This document shows, one piece after another, positions 12,466 to 32,209 of a stretch of 64,000 nucleotides of DNA; the first letter of the stretch is position 1, and every line of letters begins with the position of its first letter. The stretch covers positions 119,386 through 183,385 of the forward strand of contig VMGC01000005.1 in NCBI GenBank assembly GCA_007376385.1, read 5' to 3'. The position numbers and the translations under genes were made by a program. Source of the stretch: Parcubacteria group bacterium Gr01-1014_8 (lineage in GTDB: Bacteria > Patescibacteriota > Minisyncoccia > Phycocordibacterales > UBA2100). The notes beneath the pieces were generated by a model. It did not search any database. It was not told where the DNA came from and saw nothing but the letters and a program-made list of their open reading frames with translations.

Positions 12466-13032
12466 GTGTACTATATGCATGTGGAGCAGACTGAATCAGA
12501 TGAAGAGATCGCATGTCGCGTGCAGGGCGGCGACATTGACGCTTTCGGAATACTGGTTGATAGGTACGAGCAGAAACTTGCTCGCTACGGACGCCGATTC
12601 GTTGCCCGCGACGAAGATATTCAGGACATTGTTCAAGACGTATTCGTCAGTGCATACCAGAATATCCAAGGTTTTGACGCGACGCTTCGTTTTAGCCCGT
12701 GGATATATCGCATCGCGCATAATGCATGTGTCAACGCTCTTCGAAAGAGCGGACGAACTGCTTTTAGTTACGATTTTGATGCACTTGTGTCTCACCATGT
12801 ATATGAGGACCCTGCAGAAAGCGAGCGTGATGTAAAAGACATGCGCCTGTTACTAGACAGGGGGCTCGACAAGATGCAGGCAAAATACCGCGAAATCCTC
12901 ATTCTCCATTACTATGAGGACATGCAATACAGGGATATTGCCGACATCCTTCAAATTCCTATCGGCACGGTGAGCATACGAATGAAGCGGGCAAAGGAAG
13001 CGCTTCGCGAGAACATCAAAAACGAACTATGA
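12466..13032 (+). CDS. ECF (sigma-70 family group 4) RNA polymerase sigma factor
   Basis: Region 2 (VQDVFVSAYQNI...FSPWIYRIAHNACVNALRK) and region 4 (YREILILHYYEDMQYRDIADILQIPIGTVSIRMKRA). Confidence 0.85.
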   Translation: MYYMHVEQTESDEEIACRVQGGDIDAFGILVDRYEQKLARYGRRFVARDEDIQDIVQDVFVSAYQNIQGFDATLRFSPWIYRIAHNACVNALRKSGRTAFSYDFDALVSHHVYEDPAESERDVKDMRLLLDRGLDKMQAKYREILILHYYEDMQYRDIADILQIPIGTVSIRMKRAKEALRENIKNEL

Positions 13033-13772
13033 ATAATTTAAGGGACAAATTGCTTGGGGATATCCGCTCGGGAAAAGTGGCAATGACGCCGCGCGCCTAT
13101 TTTGTTGCAAAGATAGTGGCGCTTCTTGCTGTGTCGCTCGGCATCGTGTTCGTAACGATATTCATATTCAACTTCATATTCTTCAGCTTGCGTATCAATG
13201 GACACGAAACGCTGCTCGGCTTCGGACCTCGCGGCATGCAAGCATTCGTGTATTTCTTTCCATGGTATCTCTTGGTTCTGGATGTCGCACTTGTCGGGCT
13301 CCTCCAGTGGCTGCTTAGAAACTTCCGGCTTGGGTATCAGATACCGGTTCTCTATCTAGTCGCGGGTCTCCTCCTCGGGGCATTTGCCTTTGGTTTTGCC
13401 TTGGACCGCGGCACTCCTTTGAACGATGTTTTGCATGAGGGAAGGGAACATCTGCCCCGGCCGATTGGCGGGTTTTACGAAGGAGCCCAAAGATCGCCGA
13501 CTGCGGGAAGCGGCATGTGTCATTGCGTTATCCTTGCGATTGATGGCAGCACGCTCACTGTTCGGGACACACGGGACTCCGGAGGGGAAGGGGGGGATGT
13601 TTCTACATTGCGTATCACGCTCCCGCCAAATGACCGTCACGCAACGACGAGCGGTCTGAAGGTTGGAGACGTCATATTCATCGCCGGCGATGAGAGCGAG
13701 GGCGTGATTGAAGCCTTCGGGATCCGCAGGGAAGATGATTCGCATTCTTTTTTCAAGCCTGCGCGGCAGTAA
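13029..13772 (+). CDS. membrane protein, candidate anti-sigma factor (co-transcribed with the ECF sigma factor)
   Basis: 4-nt overlap with the sigma factor gene. Multiple TM segments. The anti-sigma role is inferred from context only. Confidence 0.4.
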   Translation: MNNLRDKLLGDIRSGKVAMTPRAYFVAKIVALLAVSLGIVFVTIFIFNFIFFSLRINGHETLLGFGPRGMQAFVYFFPWYLLVLDVALVGLLQWLLRNFRLGYQIPVLYLVAGLLLGAFAFGFALDRGTPLNDVLHEGREHLPRPIGGFYEGAQRSPTAGSGMCHCVILAIDGSTLTVRDTRDSGGEGGDVSTLRITLPPNDRHATTSGLKVGDVIFIAGDESEGVIEAFGIRREDDSHSFFKPARQ

Positions 13773-13850: not shown

Positions 13851-14132
13851 ATGAAAATCAAAAGAATCACGCCTAAGTCGCTCGCAAAAATGTCAGGGCT
13901 TCTGTACGCCATATTTGGTTTTATTGCAGGATTGTTTTTTCTCGCCGCGTCGCTTATTGCCGGTGTGCAGTCGCAAACAGCTGGTGTCGGTGCAATTATG
14001 TTTGGCATCGGTGCGCCGATACTTTTGCCGCTTTTTTATGGCGCCATGGGCGTCGTGTTCGGTGCTGTTACGGCCTGGCTATATAATTTTGTTGCAAAAC
14101 GAGTAGGGGGAATTGAGTTCGAGACGGAATAG
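13851..14132 (+). CDS. small membrane protein
   Basis: 93 aa with two Gly-rich TM helices. Confidence 0.4.
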   Translation: MKIKRITPKSLAKMSGLLYAIFGFIAGLFFLAASLIAGVQSQTAGVGAIMFGIGAPILLPLFYGAMGVVFGAVTAWLYNFVAKRVGGIEFETE

Positions 14133-14144: not shown

Positions 14145-14356
14145 ACAATGCTGGCTATTTGTCTTTCTTTTCTGTCCCATGTTTTCCGTCAGTGCAATTG
14201 CATTCGGTGAGAGGATGCTTGTGTTTTGGACAGCCTTCCGCTTGGCATACACCCGGTCTATCCGACACGCCCTTGCATCCTCCTGTACAAATATAGTGTG
14301 TCATATCGTTTGATAGTAGCACTCGAGAACGGTGTTAACGAGCGAATGTCGATTGC

Positions 14357-14998
14357 CTATGAAGAGAAGTGGGGAAGTATCTCCCGCACATTCGTAAGTA
14401 TCGTATCCGCCGCTGAAAAATCATTTGTGTGGGAGAATTCTGTGGGGCATGCAAAGCAGGTGAGGCCAGCCGCTTTTGCCGCAGTGAGTCCATGCTCAGT
14501 ATCTTCAATAGCAAGACAGTCCTCTTTTTCAAACCCGCTTTGCTCCCATGCTCGTAGATACGCTTCAGGGTTTGGCTTGATGTTCGTTACGTCGTCGGCG
14601 CAAATTGAGAAATCAAAATATTTTCCTAGTCCGGTGGTTTTCATTATCTGCTCAAAATGCATACGTAAGGCGGCTGTCACGATTCCCATAGGTACTTTTT
14701 TATGCAACCTGTCGAGAGTTTGAATGACGCCATCATTAACAGGTACGTATTTTTTCAGCAGCTCTAAATAGTCGCCATTACGAATAGTCCGCAAGCGTTG
14801 AACTTCTGCTTCTGGAATACCCTGTGATAGTGCGTATGCCATCGAACTTGCGCCTTTTTTGAGCATTTCGTTCACATACCACTCCCTGGTGATGTGTACT
14901 CCCGCAGACGCAAGAACCGACTTCGTGCTCTCGAAGTATAGATATTCGGTATTAACGAGCGTCCCGTCGCAGTCCCAAAATATGGTCTTAAACTGCAT
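14357..14998 (-). CDS. HAD family hydrolase (beta-phosphoglucomutase/phosphatase-like)
   Basis: The DxD motif FWDCDGTLVNTE at the N-terminus, with later motifs (GIVTAALRMH, AIEDTEHG). Confidence 0.8.
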   Translation of the reverse strand: MQFKTIFWDCDGTLVNTEYLYFESTKSVLASAGVHITREWYVNEMLKKGASSMAYALSQGIPEAEVQRLRTIRNGDYLELLKKYVPVNDGVIQTLDRLHKKVPMGIVTAALRMHFEQIMKTTGLGKYFDFSICADDVTNIKPNPEAYLRAWEQSGFEKEDCLAIEDTEHGLTAAKAAGLTCFACPTEFSHTNDFSAADTILTNVREILPHFSS

Positions 14999-15825
14999 TA
15001 TTGTTGCGGGTACCAATTTGCGAGGATGACTTCAATGCTTGGGTCGCCAGCATTCACCAGTTCCTTAAAACGGCCTACGTCGCTTAAGCCTCCCTGGCCT
15101 CGGTAGTGGTACGGGTACACTTGTTTTGGTTTGAACTCGAGCACAGCATTAGCCGCCTCGTCCACATCCATCGTGTAGGGAAGATTCATCGGTACGAGAG
15201 CAATATCAATGTCAGTGAGCGCACGCATTTCTGGAATGCCCGCGGTGTCACCTGCAATGTAAACGCGGAACCCATCTATTTCAATTAAATAGCCATTGCC
15301 TCGGCCTTTCGTATGATATTTCTCGTTTGATGAACCGGGAAGGTTGTACATTGGTATCGCAGTGATGGAGAGGCCGGGAGAGTCCAATGATTCTCCGTTC
15401 TTGAGTACTGTTGCATGTGCTGCAAGCTTCGGAGGAAGTTGATCTTTGACCGCTTGAGGAACGATAAGCCCGGTAACAGGCATTACGACCACTGATTCGA
15501 GTGTCGAGGGACTGAAATGGTCGTCGTGGATGTCGGTTACCAAAACTTCATCGGCTGCGGGCAAACCCGCAAACGCCGACGGATCACCGACAGGGTCAAG
15601 GTAAAAGGTCGTATTGTGTGTTTGTGCCTGCCAATGTATGACAGCTGTCGCATGCTCGATCGGAAATATTTCAACGGGTGAGTCTGATGAATTTTGCATA
15701 GGTGTATTTTGAGCTTCTCCTCCTGACCGGACAGGTTGCTTCTCATTATATATGTAGCTATTAAGGGCATAAAACCCACCCGCCAAGATGATGACGATTC
15801 CGACAAGCCAGTGGAGTGTTTTCAT
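14998..15825 (-). CDS. MBL-fold metallo-hydrolase with an N-terminal membrane anchor
   Basis: HDDHF and DVDEA motifs with MBL-fold topology. A signal-anchor sequence (MKTLHWLVGIVIILAGG). The ORF extends to 16080. Confidence 0.65.
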   Translation of the reverse strand: MKTLHWLVGIVIILAGGFYALNSYIYNEKQPVRSGGEAQNTPMQNSSDSPVEIFPIEHATAVIHWQAQTHNTTFYLDPVGDPSAFAGLPAADEVLVTDIHDDHFSPSTLESVVVMPVTGLIVPQAVKDQLPPKLAAHATVLKNGESLDSPGLSITAIPMYNLPGSSNEKYHTKGRGNGYLIEIDGFRVYIAGDTAGIPEMRALTDIDIALVPMNLPYTMDVDEAANAVLEFKPKQVYPYHYRGQGGLSDVGRFKELVNAGDPSIEVILANWYPQQ

Positions 15826-15866: not shown

Positions 15867-17888
15867 ATGGATCATTCTGCCCACCACGGACACTATCAAC
15901 ACGAAGACAAGGCACATGTTTCAGGCGGCGTTGCAGCGGACAGGCATGAAGGTCATCACGCTGAAGATTTTCTAAAGAAATTCTGGGTAACACTTGCCCT
16001 AACAATACCCATCGTTCTTTATTCCGATCTGCCGGACACGTTCTTTTCCTTGACAGCGCCGGTATTCCCCGGCTCGGCATATCTTCCGCTTTTCTTAGGT
16101 TCGATTATTTTTTTTTACGGCGGATGGGTTTTCATCAAGGGTGCACTGCGCGAACTTCAGGCTCGACTGCCTGGCATGATGACGCTCATCGCGCTTGCTA
16201 TCACCGCTGCGTATCTTTACAGCGCAGGAGCAGTTCTCTTTGGGAACGGCATGACCTTGTTTTGGGAACTCTCAACGCTTATCGCTGTCATGCTCATTGG
16301 GCACTGGATAGAAATGAAGGCTGTGCAAAGTGCAAAGGGAGCCTTGCGCGAATTGGCAAAACTTCTGCCAGATACGGCAGAGGTCATGCGGGATGGCAAA
16401 CTGGCGACTGTTGCTCTCTCTGAATTGCGTGAAGGTGATAACGTACTCGTCCGCCCCGGCGGCAAAGTGCCTGCAGACGGAATTGTCATTGAAGGGGAGT
16501 CCGAAGTGGATGAGTCACTCATAACCGGCGAATCAAGACCTGTTCTCAAAAAAAAGGGTGCAGAAGTCATCGCGGGAGCAACAAACGGAGATGGAAGTTT
16601 GCAGATACGTCTTCTGAAGCTCGGTGAACACACATTCTTGGCGGGTGTTATGCGGCTTGTTGCTGAAGCCGAACGCTCGAAATCCCGTCTTCAGTTGCTC
16701 TCTGACAAAGCTGCCTTTTATCTTACTGTTCTCGCGGTGGTTGCTGGCGCCATCACGTTCGTCGCATGGCTTGCAGTCGGGGAAAGCTTCGGATTTTCCG
16801 TTGAGCGGCTTGTCGCAGTGCTTGTTATCGCATGTCCGCATGCGCTTGGGCTTGCGATCCCGCTTGTCGCATCCATTTCGACGACGATGGCGTCAAAAAA
16901 TGGTTTTTTTGTAAAACGGCGTCTCGCGCTTGAGGCAGCTCGGAACATTACAACCGTATTGTTCGACAAGACAGGGACACTCACCAAAGGTTCTTTCGGA
17001 GTAGTGTCTGTTGTTGGTGCGGAAGAGACTCTCCAACTTGCCGCAGCAGCTGATCTAAAGTCGGAGCATCCGCTCGCGCGGGCAATTGTAGCGCATGCAC
17101 AGGAACACAACATCAAAATTCCGGCAGTTTCTTCGTTCAAGAATACACGTGGAATGGGTGTTGCCGTTGAAGTGAACGGGAGGCGAGTTTTTGTCGGGTC
17201 TTCACGATTGTTGGAGGAGCAAGGGGCAACAATATCTGCTGAGATCGAAAAACTCATTCGCGCGCACGAACGTGATGGGAAGACGGTCATTCATGTTGTG
17301 CGCGAAAAAGAGTGGGTCGGTGCGGTGGCTCTTGCGGATGTTATCCGTGAAGAATCGCGTGAAGCTGTTCGCGCGCTCCGCGCTATGGGTATCAAGGTGG
17401 CGATGATAACAGGGGACGCTGAAGATGTTGCTGCGTGGGTTTCGAAAGAACTATCAATAGACGAGTATTTTGCGCACGTCCTGCCGGGGCAAAAAGCTGA
17501 CGCTGTTAAAGATCTTCAAGCACGTGGCGAACGAGTCGCGATGGTGGGCGACGGCGTAAATGATGCCCCGGCGCTTACGCAGGCGGACCTTGGTATCGCG
17601 ATCGGGGCGGGTACAAATGTCGCGATAGAATCTGCGGGTATCATCCTCGTAAAAAATGACCCCGGCGACATTCCTAAAATAATCAAACTCTCTCGGCTCA
17701 CGTACTCGAAAATGATCCAAAATCTTTTCTGGGCGAGCGGGTACAACATCATCGCGCTCCCGATCGCAGCAGGAGCTCTTGCGGTCTACGGCATTATGCT
17801 TCAGCCCGCAGTTGCCGCCGTATTTATGTCGCTCTCTACGGTTATCGTAGCGGTGAATGCGTCGCTTCTTCGAAGCACGAACATATAG
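15867..17888 (+). CDS. copB: heavy-metal (copper) translocating P1B-type ATPase, CopB-like
   Basis: A His-rich N-terminus (HHGHYQHEDKAH...HEGHHAED), the CPH motif in TM6 (IACPHALGLAIP), DKTGTLT, GDGVNDAPAL and TGES. Confidence 0.9.
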   Translation: MDHSAHHGHYQHEDKAHVSGGVAADRHEGHHAEDFLKKFWVTLALTIPIVLYSDLPDTFFSLTAPVFPGSAYLPLFLGSIIFFYGGWVFIKGALRELQARLPGMMTLIALAITAAYLYSAGAVLFGNGMTLFWELSTLIAVMLIGHWIEMKAVQSAKGALRELAKLLPDTAEVMRDGKLATVALSELREGDNVLVRPGGKVPADGIVIEGESEVDESLITGESRPVLKKKGAEVIAGATNGDGSLQIRLLKLGEHTFLAGVMRLVAEAERSKSRLQLLSDKAAFYLTVLAVVAGAITFVAWLAVGESFGFSVERLVAVLVIACPHALGLAIPLVASISTTMASKNGFFVKRRLALEAARNITTVLFDKTGTLTKGSFGVVSVVGAEETLQLAAAADLKSEHPLARAIVAHAQEHNIKIPAVSSFKNTRGMGVAVEVNGRRVFVGSSRLLEEQGATISAEIEKLIRAHERDGKTVIHVVREKEWVGAVALADVIREESREAVRALRAMGIKVAMITGDAEDVAAWVSKELSIDEYFAHVLPGQKADAVKDLQARGERVAMVGDGVNDAPALTQADLGIAIGAGTNVAIESAGIILVKNDPGDIPKIIKLSRLTYSKMIQNLFWASGYNIIALPIAAGALAVYGIMLQPAVAAVFMSLSTVIVAVNASLLRSTNI

Positions 17889-17927
17889 AACCAGCTCTCA
17901 ACCTGGTTGGGCATCGCCGGTACGATC

Positions 17928-18230
17928 TTATGCGTAGAGAAAATGCCAGACAAAAAACGCAAAGATAACGATGCCTGCCGCAATCGCACTCAGCGAGAGA
18001 AGTATCGCGCTCGAGAGCACGGACGTTGATTTTCCTATGCGACTGAACAGCGTATAGAAGATAACAAATGCGGCAAAAGAAAGAATGCTTTTTGCTGTCC
18101 AGTGCTGGCCTGCGAGCGACGTGAGGAACGATTTGAGAGGGGCGGAAAGTTCCGTGCCGATGGCGAGTGCTGCGATGAGCCAGATCGTCAGCGCTCCTGC
18201 TCTTAACGTTGCAACGGTGTTGAGGTTCAT
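17928..18230 (-). CDS. hypothetical membrane protein
   Basis: 100 aa, hydrophobic, with a 4-nt overlap with the upstream gene. Confidence 0.35.
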   Translation of the reverse strand: MNLNTVATLRAGALTIWLIAALAIGTELSAPLKSFLTSLAGQHWTAKSILSFAAFVIFYTLFSRIGKSTSVLSSAILLSLSAIAAGIVIFAFFVWHFLYA

Positions 18231-18697
18231 AGTGCTTTCGACTCAAGTGCGCTTCTGAATCCGCTGGAGATCATGAATCCCATACCCGCTATGGAGAACG
18301 CCATAAGGACGATGAGGGCCGATACGATGATAGCGGCAGCCGCAGTCCTGCGATTTTGCATCATTTCGCTGCCGTGCCGTTTGAGGATGCTCCATGCTCC
18401 GAGGGCGAGAAATGGCAGGAAAAGGAATACATGCTCCTTTGTTTCAGTGATGACCGAATGTGTCCAAGGAAGCGGTCCTGCTTTTATCACCGGCTTTACG
18501 ATGCTTTGGTATTCTGTGAGGTAATAATACCCCCCGACGATCCAAGCGAGAAAAAGAAAAAGGACGCCGATGCCAGCGATGCGAGTCGCCCGACGCACGC
18601 GCGATTCTGATGGAGACAAAAGTTCAACGAGCACCCACAAAAAAGCGAGTGCGCCGGCTTCTCCGAGAAAGGCGTGAATGCCGATAAGGGCGTGCAT
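18227..18697 (-). CDS. hypothetical membrane protein
   Basis: 156 aa with 4 TM segments. Confidence 0.4.
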   Translation of the reverse strand: MHALIGIHAFLGEAGALAFLWVLVELLSPSESRVRRATRIAGIGVLFLFLAWIVGGYYYLTEYQSIVKPVIKAGPLPWTHSVITETKEHVFLFLPFLALGAWSILKRHGSEMMQNRRTAAAAIIVSALIVLMAFSIAGMGFMISSGFRSALESKAL

Positions 18698-18882
18698 ACC
18701 TGGTTAACTTTACCACAAATTTTCTCACGCAATCAAATATCCGCGCGTACATATGAGCGGCCAAAAACATGCATACACGTACACCTTACGCACCGATCAA
18801 CGTTGCGAACGACAAACCGGTGCTACGATTAACGTGATTGAAGCACGGTACCATTAAAGCGAGTCGAATCGAAGTTAACATT

Positions 18883-19032
18883 ATGAATACCAAACTGAAG
18901 CACTATGAAAAGACGGCTCTCATTCCTGCATCCGCTGAGGAGTTCTTCGCGTATGTAGACGATCACACGCGTTTTTCTTCTCATATGAGCAGTTCATGGA
19001 TGATAGGAGGTGCTCAGAATCAATCCAAATAA
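18883..19032 (+). pseudogene. possible N-terminal fragment of an SRPBCC-like protein (truncated)
   Basis: MNTKLKHYEKTALIPASAEEFFAYVDDHTRFSSHM resembles the first beta-alpha of SRPBCC proteins, but the ORF stops after about 50 aa. Confidence 0.2.
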
Positions 19033-19034
19033 CC

Positions 19035-19664
19035 ATGTGTTTTTCCGCTGCAGCAAGTTTTGTCGCGGGAGGAGCCTTGAGTGCAGTCGGAGTCATTACC
19101 GTTTCGCAAGCAAAGACAAAGAGGGAATTGCCGTTCGCAATGGTGCCGATTCTGTTCGGCGTTCAGCAACTGACAGAGGGATTTGTATGGTTTTCGCTCA
19201 GCTCCCACGCGGCGACCCTCAATCTGGTCGCAACATATATCTTTTCATTGTTTGCCTTTGTGGTGTGGCCGATCTATGTGCCATTCGTTGTAGGATTGTT
19301 GGAGACAGTGCAGTGGCGGAAGAAAGCACTCTATATTTTTCAGGCTGCGGGTCTCGCTGTTGGAGTGTACCTGCTCTACTCGCATACGCTAAGTTATGTC
19401 ACTTCGGAAATTGTAACTAGGCATGTTGTCTACAATAATTCGCATTTTTACGGGCTTACGGTAATGCTGCTGTATTTTGGAGCGACGATCGTTAGCTGCC
19501 TTTTTTCAAGCAAGAGAGTGATCAATACGTTCGGGATCCTGACTTTTCTGTTCGCGATGATCGCATATTTGTTTTACACAAATGCCTTTGTGTCGGTCTG
19601 GTGCTTCTTCGCGGCGATATTAAGTGTGCTTGTATACGTGCATTTCGCGCACCGGGCGGCATAG
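19035..19664 (+). CDS. hypothetical polytopic membrane protein
   Basis: About 210 aa with 6 hydrophobic helices. Confidence 0.45.
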   Translation: MCFSAAASFVAGGALSAVGVITVSQAKTKRELPFAMVPILFGVQQLTEGFVWFSLSSHAATLNLVATYIFSLFAFVVWPIYVPFVVGLLETVQWRKKALYIFQAAGLAVGVYLLYSHTLSYVTSEIVTRHVVYNNSHFYGLTVMLLYFGATIVSCLFSSKRVINTFGILTFLFAMIAYLFYTNAFVSVWCFFAAILSVLVYVHFAHRAA

Positions 19665-19738
19665 GGTGTCGGAATGGAGTGCTACGATTGAGGAGGTCGA
19701 TGCATATTAACAGCCTCATTCATGGCAAAACTAAAACT

Positions 19739-19939
19739 ATGACTCAAAATCTCGGACGTCTTGATAGGATACTGCGTTTCGCGCTCGCATTCTGGTGGCT
19801 TGGTCCATGGGCGCCATCGTACGGCATCCCCTTCGTTGACTGGGCAATTTTCCTTGTGGCGTGGATAGCGCTTATCGAGAGTTTCTCGGCGTGGTGTCTG
19901 TTGCATACGTGGTTTGGCATTGATAACAAGGATCAGTGA
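19739..19939 (+). CDS. DUF2892 (YgaP-like) small inner-membrane protein
   Basis: LGRLDRILRFALAF...GIPFVDWAIFLVAWIALIESFSAWC is typical of DUF2892. Confidence 0.6.
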   Translation: MTQNLGRLDRILRFALAFWWLGPWAPSYGIPFVDWAIFLVAWIALIESFSAWCLLHTWFGIDNKDQ

Positions 19940-19966
19940 GTTTTAACAGGTTAGAAAAAAGTTCCT

Positions 19967-20233
19967 GTGGAAAACACATCTCGTATTTCGGGAGTTGCTG
20001 CCGGGGCAGGGGTTGCAGCGGCACTTGTTGTTGCTTTCGTACTGTGTGCGATAGTGCAGGCCGTTGCACCGAGTATTCAGGCAACACATATGTGGGTAAG
20101 CCTTTTCACTTCGTCGCCGATCGGGTCCGCAGGTGCGTGGATAAGCGGTATCGCGAGCAGCGCTGTCGCGGGGTTTGTTTCTGGATGGATATTTGCGAGG
20201 GTTTATAATCTCATATCTTCACGCAAGGCGTGA
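19967..20233 (+). CDS. small Gly/Ala-rich membrane protein
   Basis: 88 aa with two TM segments. Confidence 0.35.
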   Translation: MENTSRISGVAAGAGVAAALVVAFVLCAIVQAVAPSIQATHMWVSLFTSSPIGSAGAWISGIASSAVAGFVSGWIFARVYNLISSRKA

Positions 20234-20772
20234 ACGGGGCAATGCGGGCGAATACACAGTGGTACGTTGTCACCGGAGGTCCCAGCTCCGGCAAAACGAC
20301 GACGGTAAATATATTGAAAGAGCGCGGATACAAGACGACCATTGAGCACGCGCGCCATTACATAGACACGAAGCGCGTCACAGGGAAGACCACGGATGAG
20401 ATACGCGCGAATCAGGTAGCATTTCAACAAGGCGTTCTCGATATGCAAATACGAGAGGAGAAGGCCCTCTCAAGGGACGAGGTAGTTTTTCTTGACCGGG
20501 CAGTTCCCGATGCGCTCGCATATTACCGTTTTCAATCTCTGCCAGAAGATGAGAAGCTGCAAAACGCTCTCCGGAGTGCGTCGTATAAAAAGGTATTCAT
20601 TCTGGATCCACTCCCGCTTGCTCCTGATTATGCCCGCACTGAAGATGAGACAGCGCAGAAACGATTACACGAGTTGCTCACCGAAGTATATGAGTCTCTC
20701 GGTTTTCCGGTTGTTCATGTTTCTGTTCTTCCACCGAAAGAGCGTGTGGATTTTATTTTGAAGAATCTATAG
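20230..20772 (+). CDS. P-loop NTPase (AAA_28-like small ATPase)
   Basis: Walker A motif VVTGGPSSGKTT and a Walker B-like motif VVFLDR. Confidence 0.6.
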   Translation: MNGAMRANTQWYVVTGGPSSGKTTTVNILKERGYKTTIEHARHYIDTKRVTGKTTDEIRANQVAFQQGVLDMQIREEKALSRDEVVFLDRAVPDALAYYRFQSLPEDEKLQNALRSASYKKVFILDPLPLAPDYARTEDETAQKRLHELLTEVYESLGFPVVHVSVLPPKERVDFILKNL

Positions 20773-20826
20773 CAAAAGTCCGTCCGCCAAATTGGCGAGC
20801 GGGCTTTGCAGTGAAGAGCTAAAATT

Positions 20827-20949
20827 CTATTTTTTCGATATCTGTTGCCACAACCAGATGCCAACGAGAACCAGGTCCACAAGCACTATGATCACAAAGA
20901 GAGAGCCAAAAATGCCTGCTCCGCCCATCATTCCGTATCCACCCATCAT
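20827..20949 (-). CDS. unannotated mini-protein (about 40 aa): MMGGYGMMGGAGIFGSLFVIIVLVDLVLVGIWLWQQISKK
   Basis: Hand translation of the minus strand. It is not in the ORF track because it is under 60 aa. A Met/Gly-rich N-terminus followed by a single TM segment. Confidence 0.3.
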   Translation of the reverse strand: MMGGYGMMGGAGIFGSLFVIIVLVDLVLVGIWLWQQISKK

Positions 20950-21142
20950 ATGAGAAATAGTTTTACTGCTAGTAAGGCGACCTCCGGCTAGTATACCCCA
21001 TGAGATGAATCATTCATCGTAAATTGGAGACATAATTTTAGGGTAAAAAGTCCCATTTGATGTCTGAAACTGTACGTTTTTCTATCTCACGGGGTATACC
21101 CTGGTATCTTGCGTTCATTTTGTCTAGGTATAGAGTGGGGAT

Positions 21143-21520
21143 GTGGACATGCGAGCATATACACCTTTGTTTCTCGCTATCGTCGTTATGGCGGCGGTTT
21201 TCGGGATGCCATTATTGCTCTCCGGCCCGATGCACCATGAAATGGGCTGTCCGTTTGATCAAGGAGAGGCAGCAATGTGCGCGATGAGCGTACTTGAACA
21301 CATGAAGTATTGGCAGCTCGCGTTTGCAAGCATCGTTCTTGAATTGCTTGCAGTTGCTGCGCTGACGTTTATTGCATATGGAAAGTGGAAAGGCATTGCA
21401 CCTCGAACGCCGGGCTTCGGGAGAATACTCGCACACAGTCATGTACCAGCGAGACCGACCTTGTTCCAGGAACTTTTTTCGCGAGGAATACTTAATCGTA
21501 AAGAATCCTACATTTTCTAG
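21143..21520 (+). CDS. membrane protein with a His/Met/Cys-rich loop (possible metal-binding)
   Basis: GPMHHEMGCPFDQGEAAMCAMSVLEHMKYW sits between two TM segments. Confidence 0.4.
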   Translation: MDMRAYTPLFLAIVVMAAVFGMPLLLSGPMHHEMGCPFDQGEAAMCAMSVLEHMKYWQLAFASIVLELLAVAALTFIAYGKWKGIAPRTPGFGRILAHSHVPARPTLFQELFSRGILNRKESYIF

Positions 21521-21550
21521 TTTTTGCTTTAGCAGTTAACTAGAAAATGT

Positions 21551-21724
21551 ATGGAACATACAAGCGCAATTTTTGTAACAGTACTTACGATCGGTCTCTT
21601 TGGGCTTATCATAGGTTTAGCTTCTGGCTACAACTTGGGTCTGCACAGGCTTGGCGCGCCGTCTATCGGCAACCACATCATGTCTAATGGTTACATCATG
21701 AAAGATGGTTCTATGGGCATGTAA
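21551..21724 (+). CDS. small hydrophobic ORF (57 aa)
   Basis: Hand-translated MEHTSAIFVTVLTIGLFGLIIGLASGYNLGLHRLGAPSIGNHIMSNGYIMKDGSMGM. Confidence 0.2.
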   Translation: MEHTSAIFVTVLTIGLFGLIIGLASGYNLGLHRLGAPSIGNHIMSNGYIMKDGSMGM

Positions 21725-21807
21725 AAGTGCGAGCCGCTTGCTTGGCATCCGCCAAGCAAGCGGCCTCCCGCACCTCTCAAACAATTAAACGGATAAATAG
21801 TACACTC

Positions 21808-22221
21808 ATGAAAACAATACTTATCGGCGGCATCGTCATATTGCTTCTCATCGGCGGGGCATGGTGGACGAAGAGCCTTCAAAAGAGCGATCCGGATGTC
21901 GTATCAAGAAACGGCCTACACTGGCATCCGACGCTTGCCATATATGTGAAGGGTGAAAAACAGGACATACCGAAGGGTATAGGACTTGGGGCAACGCATC
22001 TTCCGATGCACACGCACGATGACCTTCCTATTATTCACCTCGAATTCGGCAGCGTTGTCAGAAAGGAAGACTTGATGCTCGGACAATTCTTCAAGAATTG
22101 GGGAAAAGACATGCACTCGTTCGGAACAAATGTACACATGACGGTCAACGGGGAAACGAATACTGAGTTCGAGAACTACAGCATGCACGATAAAGACGTA
22201 ATAGAATTGCACTATGACTAA
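21808..22221 (+). CDS. signal-anchored His-rich protein co-transcribed with the multicopper oxidase (possible copper-handling accessory)
   Basis: His clusters (HWHP, HLPMHTHDD, HLEF, HMTV, HDKD). 8-nt overlap with the multicopper oxidase start. Confidence 0.45.
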   Translation: MKTILIGGIVILLLIGGAWWTKSLQKSDPDVVSRNGLHWHPTLAIYVKGEKQDIPKGIGLGATHLPMHTHDDLPIIHLEFGSVVRKEDLMLGQFFKNWGKDMHSFGTNVHMTVNGETNTEFENYSMHDKDVIELHYD

Positions 22222-23755
22222 GGCACAACTATTCAGTATTTTTCTCGCCATAGCGGTTCTAGGGATCGCTATGTATACGACTCAAGGGTATCTCTGGCCC
22301 GCGTCTCCTGTTGTGGCGAGTCAGGTGGTAGAGCTTGCGGACGGCGCCACATACGAGCTCACTGCGAGCGCAGTTGAAAAGGAAATAGGCGGTAGGACGT
22401 ATCGCATGCTCGCGTACAACGGTTCCATACCCGGTCCGCTCATTAAAGTTGCACAAGGTTCAGAAGTGACCATTAACTTTACGAACGATACCGGCATGAA
22501 GACGCTGCTCCATTCGCACGGAGTCCGCATGGACAACGCGTTCGACGGCTCGCAGACATCGCAAAAAGAAATGGAGCCTGGCGAGACATTCTCGTATACG
22601 CTTACGTTTCCCGATGCGGGCATGTACTGGTACCACCCGCATGTACGGGAGGATTATCAGCAGGAGCTTGGGCTCTATGGTAACTTCCTTGTCGTTTCAG
22701 TAGACGCGAACTATTGGTCGCCGGTAAACCGCGAAATACCGCTCTTCCTCGATGACCTTCTCATCGAAGGCGGGAATATCGAGTTAAGCACGCGCGGCGC
22801 AGATAGAACGCTCATGGGCCGATTCGGCAACGTCATGTTGATAAACGGCGACGACAATTACACGCTTTTAGCTAAGAAAGGGGAAGTCATCCGATTCTAC
22901 GTAACGAATTCAGCCAATGTACGACCGTTCAACTTTGCGATCGACGGCGCGCGGCTCAAGCTGGTTGGCGCGGACAACGGCGCGTACGAACACGATGCGT
23001 GGAAGGATTCGGTTCTTATCGGACCGTCGGAACGAGCGATAGTAGAAGTCTTGTTCGACAAAAGCGGTTCTTTCTCCCCGCAGAACCGAACGCCTAATAG
23101 AACGTACACATTGGGGCGCATAGATGTGTCAGCCGAAACCATTGGGGTCTCGTACGCTAATGAATTTGCAGAGTTGCGGACACACGAGGCGACGGTGCGA
23201 AGCATTGATGCGCTCCGTCCGTTATTCGCAAAGGTCCCGGACAAGCGCATTTCGCTTTCTATCGACATGATGGGGGGAATGATGGGTGGAGGCGGTCAGC
23301 ACAGGATGTCGGACGGCTCGATGATGGACAACGGCATGACGATGGGAATTCCTGAAGGTGGCATAGAGTGGGAGGACGATATGCAGATGATGAATGCGAT
23401 GTCGGATGCAGATTCAGCAAAATGGAAAATAGTCGACGAGGATACTCGAAAAGAGAATATGGATATTGATTGGTCGTTCAAGCACGGCGAGCCTGTGAAG
23501 ATCCGCATATTCAACGACCCGAGATCCATGCATCCCATGCAGCATCCGATACACTTTCACGGTCAGCGATTTCTCGTCGTGGCGCGTGACGGCGTCCCAC
23601 AGACAAATCTCGTATGGAAAGATACGGTACTCGTAAAAGCCGGTGAGACGGTTGATATTGTGCTCGACACATCAAATCCAGGGAAATGGATGGCCCACTG
23701 CCATATCGCGGAACACCTTGAAGCGGGGATGATGTTCACCTTCAAGGTCGAATAG
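22214..23755 (+). CDS. multicopper oxidase (CueO/laccase-like) with a Met-rich insert
   Basis: Cu-ligand motifs HSHG, WYHPH, HPIHFHG and HCHIAEHLEAGMM. The Met-rich segment MMGGMMGGGGQHRMSDGSMMDNGMTMG...MQMMNAM. Confidence 0.9.
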   Translation: MTKAQLFSIFLAIAVLGIAMYTTQGYLWPASPVVASQVVELADGATYELTASAVEKEIGGRTYRMLAYNGSIPGPLIKVAQGSEVTINFTNDTGMKTLLHSHGVRMDNAFDGSQTSQKEMEPGETFSYTLTFPDAGMYWYHPHVREDYQQELGLYGNFLVVSVDANYWSPVNREIPLFLDDLLIEGGNIELSTRGADRTLMGRFGNVMLINGDDNYTLLAKKGEVIRFYVTNSANVRPFNFAIDGARLKLVGADNGAYEHDAWKDSVLIGPSERAIVEVLFDKSGSFSPQNRTPNRTYTLGRIDVSAETIGVSYANEFAELRTHEATVRSIDALRPLFAKVPDKRISLSIDMMGGMMGGGGQHRMSDGSMMDNGMTMGIPEGGIEWEDDMQMMNAMSDADSAKWKIVDEDTRKENMDIDWSFKHGEPVKIRIFNDPRSMHPMQHPIHFHGQRFLVVARDGVPQTNLVWKDTVLVKAGETVDIVLDTSNPGKWMAHCHIAEHLEAGMMFTFKVE

Positions 23756-23805
23756 CCGGAGTGATGGTGTACTATTCAGAGACTAGCAGTAATGTATCAA
23801 GACAT

Positions 23806-23979
23806 ATGTCATGTAAAACATGCGGCGGCGCAACAGAAGGTTATAAGTGCGATGTCTGTGGCACCGAGGCGAAAGAGCACGATGACAAGCATTCGTGCGG
23901 AGGGCAGCACTGCATGCAGAAGTGCGCGATGTGCAATGAGGCGGAAACGAAATGCAGCTGCAGTTCAGTCGAGAGGTAA
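23806..23979 (+). CDS. small Cys-rich protein (12 Cys in 57 aa), putative metal-binding
   Basis: MSCKTCGGATEGYKCDVCGTEAKEHDDKHSCGGQHCMQKCAMCNEAETKCSCSS, immediately downstream of the multicopper oxidase. Confidence 0.45.
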   Translation: MSCKTCGGATEGYKCDVCGTEAKEHDDKHSCGGQHCMQKCAMCNEAETKCSCSSVER

Positions 23980-24033: not shown

Positions 24034-24062
24034 AAAAAAGGACGGCTCTGCCGTCCTTTTCT
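24034..24062. terminator. rho-independent terminator (bidirectional)
   Basis: AAAAAGGACGGCTCTGCCGTCCTTTTCTT sits between convergent genes. Confidence 0.65.
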
Positions 24063-24086
24063 TGCGGCTTTCGAGCTGCTCAAAGC

Positions 24087-24326
24087 TCAAATTTTAATGA
24101 GACTCAATTTCTTTTTTCGGGACCATTGTTTTATCTCAAACTCGCGCTTAAGTGCTGAACTTCTATTCCTCTTTTTTTCCGAATACAATACTCTTACAAC
24201 GCCTCTGCTTCGTGTGTAATTACCACCGAGTCCTTTCTGGTGTTCCTTGAAACGACGTCGTATATCCATCGTGATGCCCGTATATATAGAGCTATCTTTG
24301 CACTCTATGATGTATACCCAGTACAT
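24087..24326 (-). CDS. GIY-YIG nuclease family protein
   Basis: MYWVYIIECKDSSIYTGITMDIRRRFKEHQKG is the GIY-YIG signature. Confidence 0.75.
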   Translation of the reverse strand: MYWVYIIECKDSSIYTGITMDIRRRFKEHQKGLGGNYTRSRGVVRVLYSEKKRNRSSALKREFEIKQWSRKKKLSLIKI

Positions 24327-24569: not shown

Positions 24570-24947
24570 CTAAAGAGCTGGAGGCGGCAAAGTCTGTTTT
24601 CGCAGTTTCCACCACCCGACGACAATCGGGAGGAAAAACGTGAGGGCGTAGTATAAATACACATCTAATTTGTAGTAGCCGTCCGCCGGTTGGAAGGCTT
24701 TGTACAGGAAGAAGTAATCGCAGACGATGGCGATCAGCACCCAGGCAGCGCCGACGAGTGCGTAGTATTGCACCGTACTCCCGTTAATTTTCTTCAAGAG
24801 CACCCACGTCGTGATGACAATCCCGATTGGTGTGATGATCCATCCAATTGCCGCAGAGGACACAAGCGTAAACAGGATGATGCCAAGCGCATACCCGATA
24901 AGCCAGAGCAGGAGTCCCCACCCGATTGTGTCTTTCAGAAGCTGCAT
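24570..24947 (-). CDS. hypothetical 4-TM membrane protein, paralog A (of 31679..32059)
   Basis: Shares GY-LGI-LF, IGWI-TPIG, YYAL, AW-LIAIV-DY-FL and FKPADGYYKLDVYLYYALT with the second copy. Confidence 0.5.
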   Translation of the reverse strand: MQLLKDTIGWGLLLWLIGYALGIILFTLVSSAAIGWIITPIGIVITTWVLLKKINGSTVQYYALVGAAWVLIAIVCDYFFLYKAFQPADGYYKLDVYLYYALTFFLPIVVGWWKLRKQTLPPPAL

Positions 24948-24973
24948 GTTCACGCGTTGATTATATCTCATTT

Positions 24974-31678: not shown

Positions 31679-32059
31679 TTATGTGCCCGAATCGATCATA
31701 TTTTGAGTTCTGTTCTTATACCAACCGACTGCGAGGGGGAGAATGAGCGTCAAAGCGTAGTAGAGATATACATCTAACTTGTAGTATCCATCTGCCGGCT
31801 TGAATATCATCACGAGAAATATGTAGTCGAGAACTATCGCAATAAGTGTCCATGCGACCGCGAGGAGAGCATAGTGTTCAAATGATGCGCTTATTTTCTT
31901 GAACAGCACCCAAAGCGTGATCAGTACACCGATCGGCGTAAGGATCCACCCGATCATGGAGGGCGATACTACAAAGAAGAGTACGATGCCAAGCACATAG
32001 CCGATGAACCAAAGCGCAAAACCCCACAAAATCGCATTTTTGTAGAACGCCTTATTCAC
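31679..32059 (-). CDS. hypothetical 4-TM membrane protein, paralog B (of 24570..24947)
   Basis: See paralog A. Confidence 0.5.
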   Translation of the reverse strand: MNKAFYKNAILWGFALWFIGYVLGIVLFFVVSPSMIGWILTPIGVLITLWVLFKKISASFEHYALLAVAWTLIAIVLDYIFLVMIFKPADGYYKLDVYLYYALTLILPLAVGWYKNRTQNMIDSGT

Positions 32060-32209
32060 GCTCTGATTGTATCAGAAGTTCGAACGTCAACTGCCATCCA
32101 AAAAAGAATGGTTTTGTTAAGAGACAAAATCACGTGCTCCTCTGTGTCTCCAATCTTCGAACCTTCTTTACTGCCAATAGAGTGTTTGTACCTCTATAAG
32201 CCTATTAAG

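Follow-up and report, generated by a model that had tools for sequence, protein, structure and literature searches.

The stretch of DNA analysed here, called the window in the following, comprises 64,000 nucleotides of a contig from Parcubacteria group bacterium Gr01-1014_8. Part of it is a block of genes in which CopB, a predicted copper-exporting P-type ATPase, and a multicopper oxidase with a Met-rich insert are accompanied by a set of small proteins rich in His, Met or Cys, namely his137, tm125, mg40, tm57 and cys57. From our point of view, this block represents a copper-detoxification island of a type that recurs in shuffled form across the Patescibacteria (Candidate Phyla Radiation). The core of the island, a P1B-3 pump and a Met-rich oxidase, is a well-known design for copper detoxification, and the accessory families are uncharacterised. 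The gene map between 12.4 and 25 kb of the window was derived from a listing of open reading frames (ORFs) together with profile scans against Pfam and NCBIfam (Table 1).

Table 1. Genes and RNA features of the copper block and its surroundings (positions counted from the first nucleotide of the window; aa, amino acids; TM, transmembrane).
Feature	Position	Strand	Remark
Sigma-70 / ECF-type sigma factor	12466-13032	+	
247-aa membrane protein	13029-13772	+	
93-aa membrane protein	13851-14132	+	
cys55, Cys-rich ORF	14155-14322	-	Outside the copper block
HAD hydrolase	14357-15016	-	
MBL-fold protein	from 14998	-	
CopB, predicted P1B-3-type Cu-exporting P-type ATPase, 673 aa	15867-17888	+	
Two overlapping membrane ORFs, 100 and 156 aa	17928-18230, 18227-18697	-	No family
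DUF6629 membrane protein	18996-19664	+	PF20334, 106 bits
DUF2892 / YgaP-like two-TM protein	19739-19939	+	PF11127, 38.7 bits (gathering cutoff 25.3)
88-aa membrane protein	19967-20233	+	PF18926 (DUF5676), 24.8 bits (cutoff 27.6)
AAA_28 P-loop NTPase	20230-20772	+	PF13521, 124 bits
mg40, 40-aa single-pass membrane protein	20827-20949	-	
tm125, two-TM protein	21143-21520	+	
tm57, 57-aa TM protein	21551-21724	+	GenBank TSC85640.1
RNA hairpin between tm57 and his137	21727-21773	+	
his137, N-terminally anchored, 137 aa	21808-22221	+	ORF 21727-22221, likely start ATG 21808; G01um10148_1027
Three-domain multicopper oxidase with Met-rich insert	22214-23755	+	TSC85642.1
cys57, 57 aa	23806-23979	+	
Likely intrinsic terminator	24039-24069	+	
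GIY-YIG protein	24087-24326	-	

Much of this content had been described in the original prediction, which was made from the letters of the DNA and proposed a copper-handling block with CopB, a DUF2892 protein, a P-loop NTPase, a membrane protein with a characteristic loop, a His-rich signal-anchored protein that overlaps the start of the oxidase, the oxidase itself and a Cys-rich 57-aa protein, in this order on one strand. All of these genes were recovered, CopB and the oxidase passed the tests of their families, and the DUF2892 and NTPase assignments were borne out by their profile scores; the 40-aa minus-strand ORF exists exactly as quoted. The gene order itself held in part, since five ORFs had been omitted from it, namely the two overlapping ones on the minus strand, the DUF6629 and 88-aa membrane proteins and tm57. 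The earlier statement that no family is assigned to the small proteins agrees with our Pfam and NCBIfam profile searches, which gave no match.

CopB scored 575 bits (cutoff 397) and 567 bits (cutoff 346) against TIGR01511 and TIGR01525, two models of copper-translocating ATPases, and it contains the E1-E2_ATPase and Hydrolase domains of Pfam; no HMA domain was found in it by the Pfam scan. In the Argüello classification, P1B-3 ATPases carry CPH rather than CPC in TM4, NX5GYNX4P in TM5 and MSXSTX5N in TM6. The translation of CopB shows the His-rich N-terminus (MDHSAHHGHYQHEDKAH...HEGHH) and the CPH motif that had been claimed for it (VIACPHALG, TM4), in addition to DKTGT and GDGVNDAP, and the signatures of TM5 and TM6 read QNLFWASGYNIIALP and FMSLSTVIVAVN (MSLST), respectively. 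Judged by score, TM signatures and a His-rich N-terminus that lacks an HMA domain, CopB can be classified as a genuine P1B-3 copper P-type ATPase. A GMxCxxC motif as in HMA domains and CopZ was present in none of the open frames across the window, and none of the small proteins matched PF00403 (HMA/CopZ).

In the oxidase, the domains Cu-oxidase_3 (PF07732), Cu-oxidase (PF00394) and Cu-oxidase_2 (PF07731) all exceeded their Pfam cutoffs, and the translation contains all four copper-ligand motifs (LHSHG, WYHPH, HPIHFHG and HCHIAEHLEAGM) as well as the Met-rich insert of the original prediction (DMMGGMMGGGGQHRMSDGSMMDNGMTMG...MQMMNAMS). As such, the protein has every family feature of a genuine three-domain multicopper oxidase at the level of its sequence. 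Long Met-rich inserts are, from the example of CueO, a hallmark of cuprous oxidases. The scores of the oxidase against the CueO equivalog model NF008205 (138 bits, cutoff 525) and the CopA-type model (121 bits, cutoff 479) are nevertheless far too low for these families, and because of this the protein is not regarded as orthologous to any characterised cuprous oxidase; by sequence, it resembles CueO in its design, with the Met-rich insert, yet is not its orthologue. The N-terminus MTKAQLFSIFLAIAVLGIAMY has no RR or twin-arginine motif and appears as a plain hydrophobic signal or anchor. Among 187 relatives of the oxidase, the closest (60-76% identity) all come from metagenome-assembled genomes of Patescibacteria.

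The genes tm125, tm57, his137, oxidase and cys57 follow one another head to tail on the same strand, and the hairpin at 24039-24069 likely closes this transcription unit as an intrinsic terminator: it consists of the stem GGACGGC, the loop UCU and the stem GCCGUCC followed by UUUUCUU (-18 kcal/mol, z -2.4). The hairpin between tm57 and his137 has a perfect 14-bp stem (GCCGCTTGCTTGGC / GCCAAGCAAGCGGC; -36 kcal/mol, z -7.4), is unique in the window and has no U-tract; it may serve as an attenuator, affect RNA stability or mark a site of processing. One candidate for a CsoR operator was considered, the palindrome GGGGTATACCC at 21091-21101 in the divergent intergenic region of mg40 and tm125, which is made of two CsoR half-site words in reverse arrangement; it was dropped since it is not conserved in the related locus L001. 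The CsoR box pattern of Staphylococcus aureus had no promoter-proximal match in the window.

Three sets of related loci were compared. The first comprises 80 loci around relatives of the oxidase, which were searched with all proteins of the window and then by iteration of hidden Markov models (HMMs). A second set of 80 (L091-L170) was drawn from 210 relatives of cys57 that were found in a metagenome scan with a narrow alignment as seed, and additional single-locus look-ups for relatives of cys57, his137 and tm125 gave L081-L090. In L001, where the oxidase is 74% identical to that of the window, the order is the end of CopB, mg40 on the minus strand, tm125, his137, oxidase and cys57, and the small proteins are 53-81% identical to those of the window. 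The same module is found in L081, L082 and L091-L094, so that the small ORFs are conserved beside copB and oxidase genes in related genomes, the point on which the original prediction had been prepared to fall. Relatives of CopB adjoin the oxidase in half of the oxidase-anchored loci (40/80). CsoR-family repressors occur in 12 loci of this set and are encoded at the head of the sister islands L088, L089 and L090. Hence tm125, his137, mg40 and cys57 are genuine genes that are conserved; they belong to unnamed families and travel with genes for CopB, oxidase, CsoR, DsbA and cupredoxin. Three recurrent genes of such islands are missing here, namely those for a DsbA-like thioredoxin, a membrane protein of ~190 aa with a GCAACG motif and the CsoR-family repressor; a homologue search of the window for DsbA, the CAAC-membrane protein and cupredoxin found none.

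Several of the remaining genes of the block have relatives in these islands as well. The DUF6629 protein is a recurrent member of related copper islands, with homologues adjoining the oxidase in L002, L003, L022 and L029 and others in eight cys57-anchored loci. A homologue of the DUF2892 protein lies directly 3' of the oxidase in L006, and homologues of the AAA_28 NTPase with 78-80% identity are found in the islands L002, L003, L081 and L082. The 88-aa protein aligns with the DUF5676 model over its full length at E 4e-5, with a score below the cutoff; its homologues are near the oxidase in L017, L036, L009 and L011, and in L088, his137 has a DUF5676 gene as its neighbour. For the two minus-strand ORFs of 100 and 156 aa, no homologue was found in any related locus, even at an E of 5.

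The stop codon of his137 lies within an overlap of 8 nt with the start of the oxidase gene (22214), as had been noted for the His-rich protein before. Of 30 loci that contain both genes, 13 have his137 immediately 5' of the oxidase, without exception on the same strand, and the 8-nt overlap recurs in about half of these 13 neighbour pairs. Six His residues are invariant in the family, namely an HxH at 38/40, H64, an HxH at 68/70 and H77. In the AlphaFold2 model (pLDDT, predicted local distance difference test, 90), a helix of residues 2-25, presumably the membrane anchor, is followed by a predicted beta-grasp domain; neither a sequence search of the PDB nor a Foldseek search of it with the model returned a significant match. 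The family comprises >1000 clusters, none of them with a Pfam domain, and all names that sources provide read 'hypothetical protein'. The same holds for the tm125 family with its at least 223 clusters. tm125 has two hydrophobic helices around the Cys/His/Met loop HHEMGCPFDQGEAAMCAMSVLEHM, in accordance with the loop of the earlier description. Its invariant residues are C46 and W57 in the loop and P105, G115, L117 and K120 in a basic C-terminal tail (F..GIL..K). The loop reads CC...SDHMELWK in most members and CPF-x7-C...LEHMKYWQ in the subgroup of the window, and by the positive-inside rule it would face outward. With iterated HMMs, his137 was detected in 18 and tm125 in 11 of the 80 oxidase-anchored loci, and tm125 in 13 of the 80 cys57-anchored ones; tm125 is usually located before a DsbA gene. 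Both families also occur in islands with CsoR and a P1B-ATPase (L088, L089, L090), some of which have no oxidase. For extracytoplasmic proteins rich in His, Met or Cys, the designation 'metallochaperone' that had been suggested is plausible in view of linkage and composition.

cys57 contains 10 Cys (17.5%) and 3 His, a count that corrects the 12 Cys given for it previously, with a single CxC and no signal peptide; because of the latter it is taken as cytoplasmic. C3, C6, C15, C40, C43, C50 and C52 are invariant in its family, and C18 and H29 are kept in ≥90% of the members. The conserved Cys follow the spacing CxxC...CxxC...CxxC...CxC, with the two CxxCG motifs CKTCGG and CDVCGT, and the second conserved half of the protein reads H-x3-H-x-C-x3-HC-x2-KC-x2-C-x6-CxC. 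A dN/dS (ratio of nonsynonymous to synonymous substitution rates) of 0.06-0.28 was obtained, with synonymous sites near saturation. With a HMMER profile, 94 clusters were recovered at E<1e-3 from 1.84 billion representatives, nearly all of them standalone proteins of 52-80 aa, compared to only 8 clusters in a word-indexed search; the top match in a collection of 15 billion proteins was 79% identical. The exact sequences of cys57 and mg40 are absent from that collection, from which it appears that neither gene was called in the source genome. Homologues of cys57 at 1144-1299 in L082, 3944-4099 in L089 and 6354-6524 in L081 were likewise missed or truncated by gene callers.

The idea of a metallothionein-like cys57, put forward in the original prediction, appears weak and doubtful in view of the Cys content, the one CxC and the zinc-ribbon-like spacing, and neither cys57 nor 37 of its relatives matched any of the metallothionein families in Pfam or NCBIfam. 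The weak profile similarities that were found are to DZR (0.005), Zn_ribbon_LapB and HVO_2753_ZBP, and the sequence matches in the PDB comprise only zinc fingers and 6ydh, a zinc-ribbon protein of DUF1610 (E 0.0015). A likeness to C2H2 zinc fingers (2i13, E 4e-6) was rejected as an effect of composition and repeats because the spacing from Cys to His is x6 and not x12. Judged by its sequence, cys57 has the features of the C(P)XCG zinc-finger mini-proteins, a class that is set by motif and not by homology, and it looks more like a zinc-ribbon mini-protein than a classical metallothionein.

As to its neighbourhood, cys57 directly follows the oxidase in L081, L082, L086, L091, L092, L094, L096, L128 and L129, and it is located after CopB in L089/L103, L107 and L082, where it is a second, uncalled copy. 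Within the cys57-anchored scan, 6 loci have cys57 ~45 bp 3' of the oxidase, and in 5 it follows CopB at a distance of ~110-570 bp. Further relatives lie before a cupredoxin gene in L085 and, in L083, in a metal island with HMBD-MauE, DsbA, his137-like and tm125-like genes. Copper-island genes accompany cys57 in 27 of its 39 closest loci (L091-L129, 66-81% identity). In 11 loci (L095, L098, L099, L106, L110, L111, L116, L121, L122, L126 and L167), a 72-aa TM protein with the C-terminal sequence ...IATIHHMMLEKxGEI(V/I) is encoded 23 bp 5' of cys57, which suggests a tight gene pair; this protein belongs to no Pfam family in a scan to E 10 and is absent from the window.

mg40 consists of a Met/Gly head (MMGGYGMMGG) and one TM helix, and the protein stops 5 residues past the helix. 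The head matches the Met-rich insert of the oxidase itself (MMGGMMGGGG). No Pfam match was obtained up to E 10, and the SHOCT domain (PF09851) is absent. Nine homologues were found, all within copper islands, and with iterated HMMs mg40 was detected in 7-8 of the 80 oxidase-anchored loci. Although the head has undergone indels, the nine homologues retain an intact ORF between the MMG start and the KK end. Third codon positions are the most variable ones, and the frame has the lowest pN/pS (ratio of nonsynonymous to synonymous polymorphism) of all six (0.34) with zero stops, compared to 0.46 and one stop for the best antisense frame. The gene lies downstream of the oxidase on the same strand, at ~60-520 bp, in L013, L020, L011, L009, L021 and L082; its position and strand relative to the oxidase vary among loci, and the ORF remains intact. 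In L082 the homologue was called as a gene with a 43-aa product. Two SHOCT proteins from copper islands of Patescibacteria (L088, 6291-6521; L090, 13940-14176) share the MMGGYG... head and TM helix of mg40. mg40 looks like a version of such proteins minus the SHOCT domain, a resemblance in a short, low-complexity head from which homology is not demonstrable. The fifth small protein, tm57, has a Met-rich tail (HIMSNGYIMKDGSMGM) that resembles only the Met-rich inserts of oxidases, that of the oxidase in the window included; a relaxed Pfam scan to E 10 gave no meaningful match for tm57. It is an orphan, and its status as a real gene is uncertain.

Taken together, it seems most likely that CopB exports Cu(I) from the cytoplasm and that the metal is caught at the outer face of the membrane by the tethered proteins his137, tm125, mg40 and possibly tm57. 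These would hand it to the anchored oxidase, both for the loading of its four copper sites once it has been exported and as substrate, and the oxidase would turn Cu(I) into the less toxic Cu(II). In the cytoplasm, cys57 would bind metal via its eight conserved Cys and most likely either buffer Cu(I) or deliver it to the His-rich, HMA-less CopB. We assign a probability of roughly 60% to this overall scheme, in which outward-facing His/Met/Cys proteins capture exported copper and metallate the oxidase and cys57 handles cytoplasmic metal; the roles of the individual accessory proteins are held with less confidence.

A number of results weigh against the scheme. The roles proposed for his137, tm125, mg40 and cys57 derive from linkage and residue composition, and the Cys spacing of cys57 suits Cu(I) clusters no better than structural Zn(Cys)4 ribbons. 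Among the 41 more distant cys57 loci (L130-L170, 60-78% identity), a group that has no recurrent neighbour, only 5 contain copper-island genes. None of 170 related loci contains a homologue of tm57, even at an E of 5, and the region of 17.9-20.8 kb includes two minus-strand ORFs without island association. As regards regulation, the window yielded neither a regulator of the CsoR, CopY or ArsR type nor a convincing CsoR operator, a search upstream of tm125 and CopB revealed no conserved palindrome, and scans of the window for promoter and terminator consensus sequences gave results at chance level.

Other readings of these data have hence to be considered. That cys57 is a structural zinc-ribbon mini-protein, which would hold one or two Zn ions at Cys4 sites and act as a small regulator or adaptor rather than as a Cu metallothionein or chaperone, falls only somewhat short of an even chance; it might, for example, modulate CopB, the AAA_28 NTPase or gene expression. 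The two CxxCG motifs plus CxxC and CxC, with eight conserved Cys, and the profile and PDB matches, which are solely weak zinc-ribbon or zinc-finger ones, would fit such a protein, as would the observation that zinc is the metal bound by most archaeal C(P)XCG mini-proteins of similar length (PMC11241148). Its distant relatives also lie mostly outside copper islands, whereas the subfamily nearest to the cys57 of the window is strongly linked to copper. In addition, the conserved His25, His29 and His35 together with the extra Cys31 and Cys36 exceed what two Zn sites need, and a Zn-ribbon scaffold is itself compatible with Cu(I) binding. A further reading goes beyond the overall scheme in that the four families would form a copper relay specific to Patescibacteria, with cys57 in place of CopZ as cytoplasmic donor or buffer of Cu(I) for the HMA-less, His-rich CopB, his137 metallating the Sec-exported oxidase, and tm125 and mg40 collecting Cu(I) at the surface of the membrane. 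In such a relay, his137 would be a new kind of extracytoplasmic chaperone, a beta-grasp domain with a six-His site, that is translationally coupled to the oxidase. We consider this tentative and rather unlikely as a whole.

Two alternatives concern the nature of the genes and of the substrate. It is quite improbable, from our point of view, that some of the very small ORFs (mg40, tm57) are no genes at all and would represent ORFs that arose by chance, or else conserved sequence of a non-coding or antisense nature. mg40 is, admittedly, a low-complexity plus hydrophobic stretch that the gene callers skipped in the source genome, and its antisense frame is open in most homologues too; the intact ORF of its nine homologues, which survives changes of position and strand, the lowest pN/pS without stops, the variable third positions and the gene call in L082 nevertheless argue for a gene. 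For tm57, which has no counterpart in the related loci, only its annotation and its Met-rich tail speak for a gene. A main role of the oxidase and its partners other than copper detoxification appears very unlikely; in this reading they would work outside the cytoplasm on a different substrate, e.g., Fe(II), Mn(II), phenolics or one of nitrite-related chemistry, and the His/Cys proteins would only assemble the cofactors of the oxidase. The distance of the oxidase from the CueO and CopA-type cutoffs would be in line with such a system, and the DsbA-like and DsbD/Redoxin genes of sister islands suggest a maturation machinery. The long Met-rich insert, however, is what is known from cuprous oxidases, a Cu-exporting P1B ATPase so often adjoins the oxidase and CsoR-family repressors accompany it, and his137 and tm125 are also present in the oxidase-free islands L088 and L089 with CsoR and an ATPase.

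The copper-detoxification scheme has parallels in characterised systems. In S. aureus, a P1B-3 pump and a His/Met surface lipoprotein whose function was initially unknown are encoded together in the CsoR-controlled copX(B)-copL operon (PMC5947656). The island resembles this operon and copB-mco, both of them loci of copper hyper-resistance (PMC5947656, PMC10233261), in that a multicopper oxidase and/or a His/Met-rich accessory protein tethered to the surface accompanies a P1B-3 ATPase that has a poly-His N-terminus and no ferredoxin-like CxxC domain, and sister islands of Patescibacteria are also headed by a CsoR-family repressor, a gene that the window does not contain. CopL, however, is a lipoprotein with tandem DUF1541, and the accessory proteins of the window are unrelated to it and match no Pfam family. 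With CueO/CopA of Escherichia coli, the window shares a three-domain oxidase with four copper motifs and a Met-rich insert beside a Cu(I)-exporting P-type ATPase; in contrast to CueO, its oxidase scores only 138 of the required 525 bits on the CueO model and has no twin-arginine signal, and its pump is of the CopB type (CPH, His-rich) and not of the CopA type (CPC, HMA domain).

The small proteins can be compared in the same way. Like the C(P)XCG mini-proteins of Haloferax volcanii, e.g., HVO_2753 (PMC11241148, PMC10716476), cys57 is <70 aa long and carries two CxxCG motifs; it has no significant sequence homology to them, though, and adds a second conserved half, and its closest subfamily resides in copper islands. 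MymT of Mycobacterium tuberculosis and SmtA of Synechococcus are likewise small, cytoplasmic and rich in Cys and His, and MymT shares a CsoR-family (RicR) copper regulon with the multicopper oxidase mmcO (PMC6337107). No sequence similarity of cys57 to either of them was found, and cys57 differs from both in its lower Cys content, its one CxC and its ribbon-like spacing. Small membrane proteins with a SHOCT domain (PF09851) are encoded beside archaeal copper-fitness islands (PMC5498576), and one of them is induced by silver in Haloferax (PMC10694973). mg40 has the N-terminal layout of the SHOCT proteins in L088 and L090, and it lacks the SHOCT domain.

Two observations were made at the margins of the island. 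On its 5' side, the Cys-rich ORF cys55 reads MTHYICTGGCKGVSDRPGVCQAEGCPKHKHPLTECNC... and has 6 Cys; it gave no Pfam match, including a relaxed scan to E 10, and an uncalled homologue with 71% identity lies in the copper island L089 of a Kaiserbacteria genome (8602-8727, minus strand). An assignment of cys55 as an HMBD domain (YxCPMHP..PGxCPxCG) is not claimed, as the likeness spans 20 residues at E 0.07-0.26. Just beyond the island on the other side, a 133-aa membrane protein (24570-24971, minus strand) shares 62% identity with a paralogue at a distance of 7 kb (31697-32071, minus strand).

Overall, the present analysis indicates that Patescibacteria keep a multi-gene copper island despite their tiny genomes. 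The accessory families are numerous in public databases, with >1000 clusters for his137, at least 223 for tm125 and ~90 representative clusters for cys57, and yet uncharacterised. Because gene callers often miss cys57 and mg40, inventories of metal resistance in these genomes are incomplete. Should the accessory proteins bind copper, the small set of known bacterial copper chaperones (CopZ, CusF, CopC/PCuAC, CopL, Csp and MymT) would gain new folds and motifs, and the accessory proteins would bear on the question how the four copper sites of an oxidase that is exported unfolded are loaded in organisms without a periplasm.

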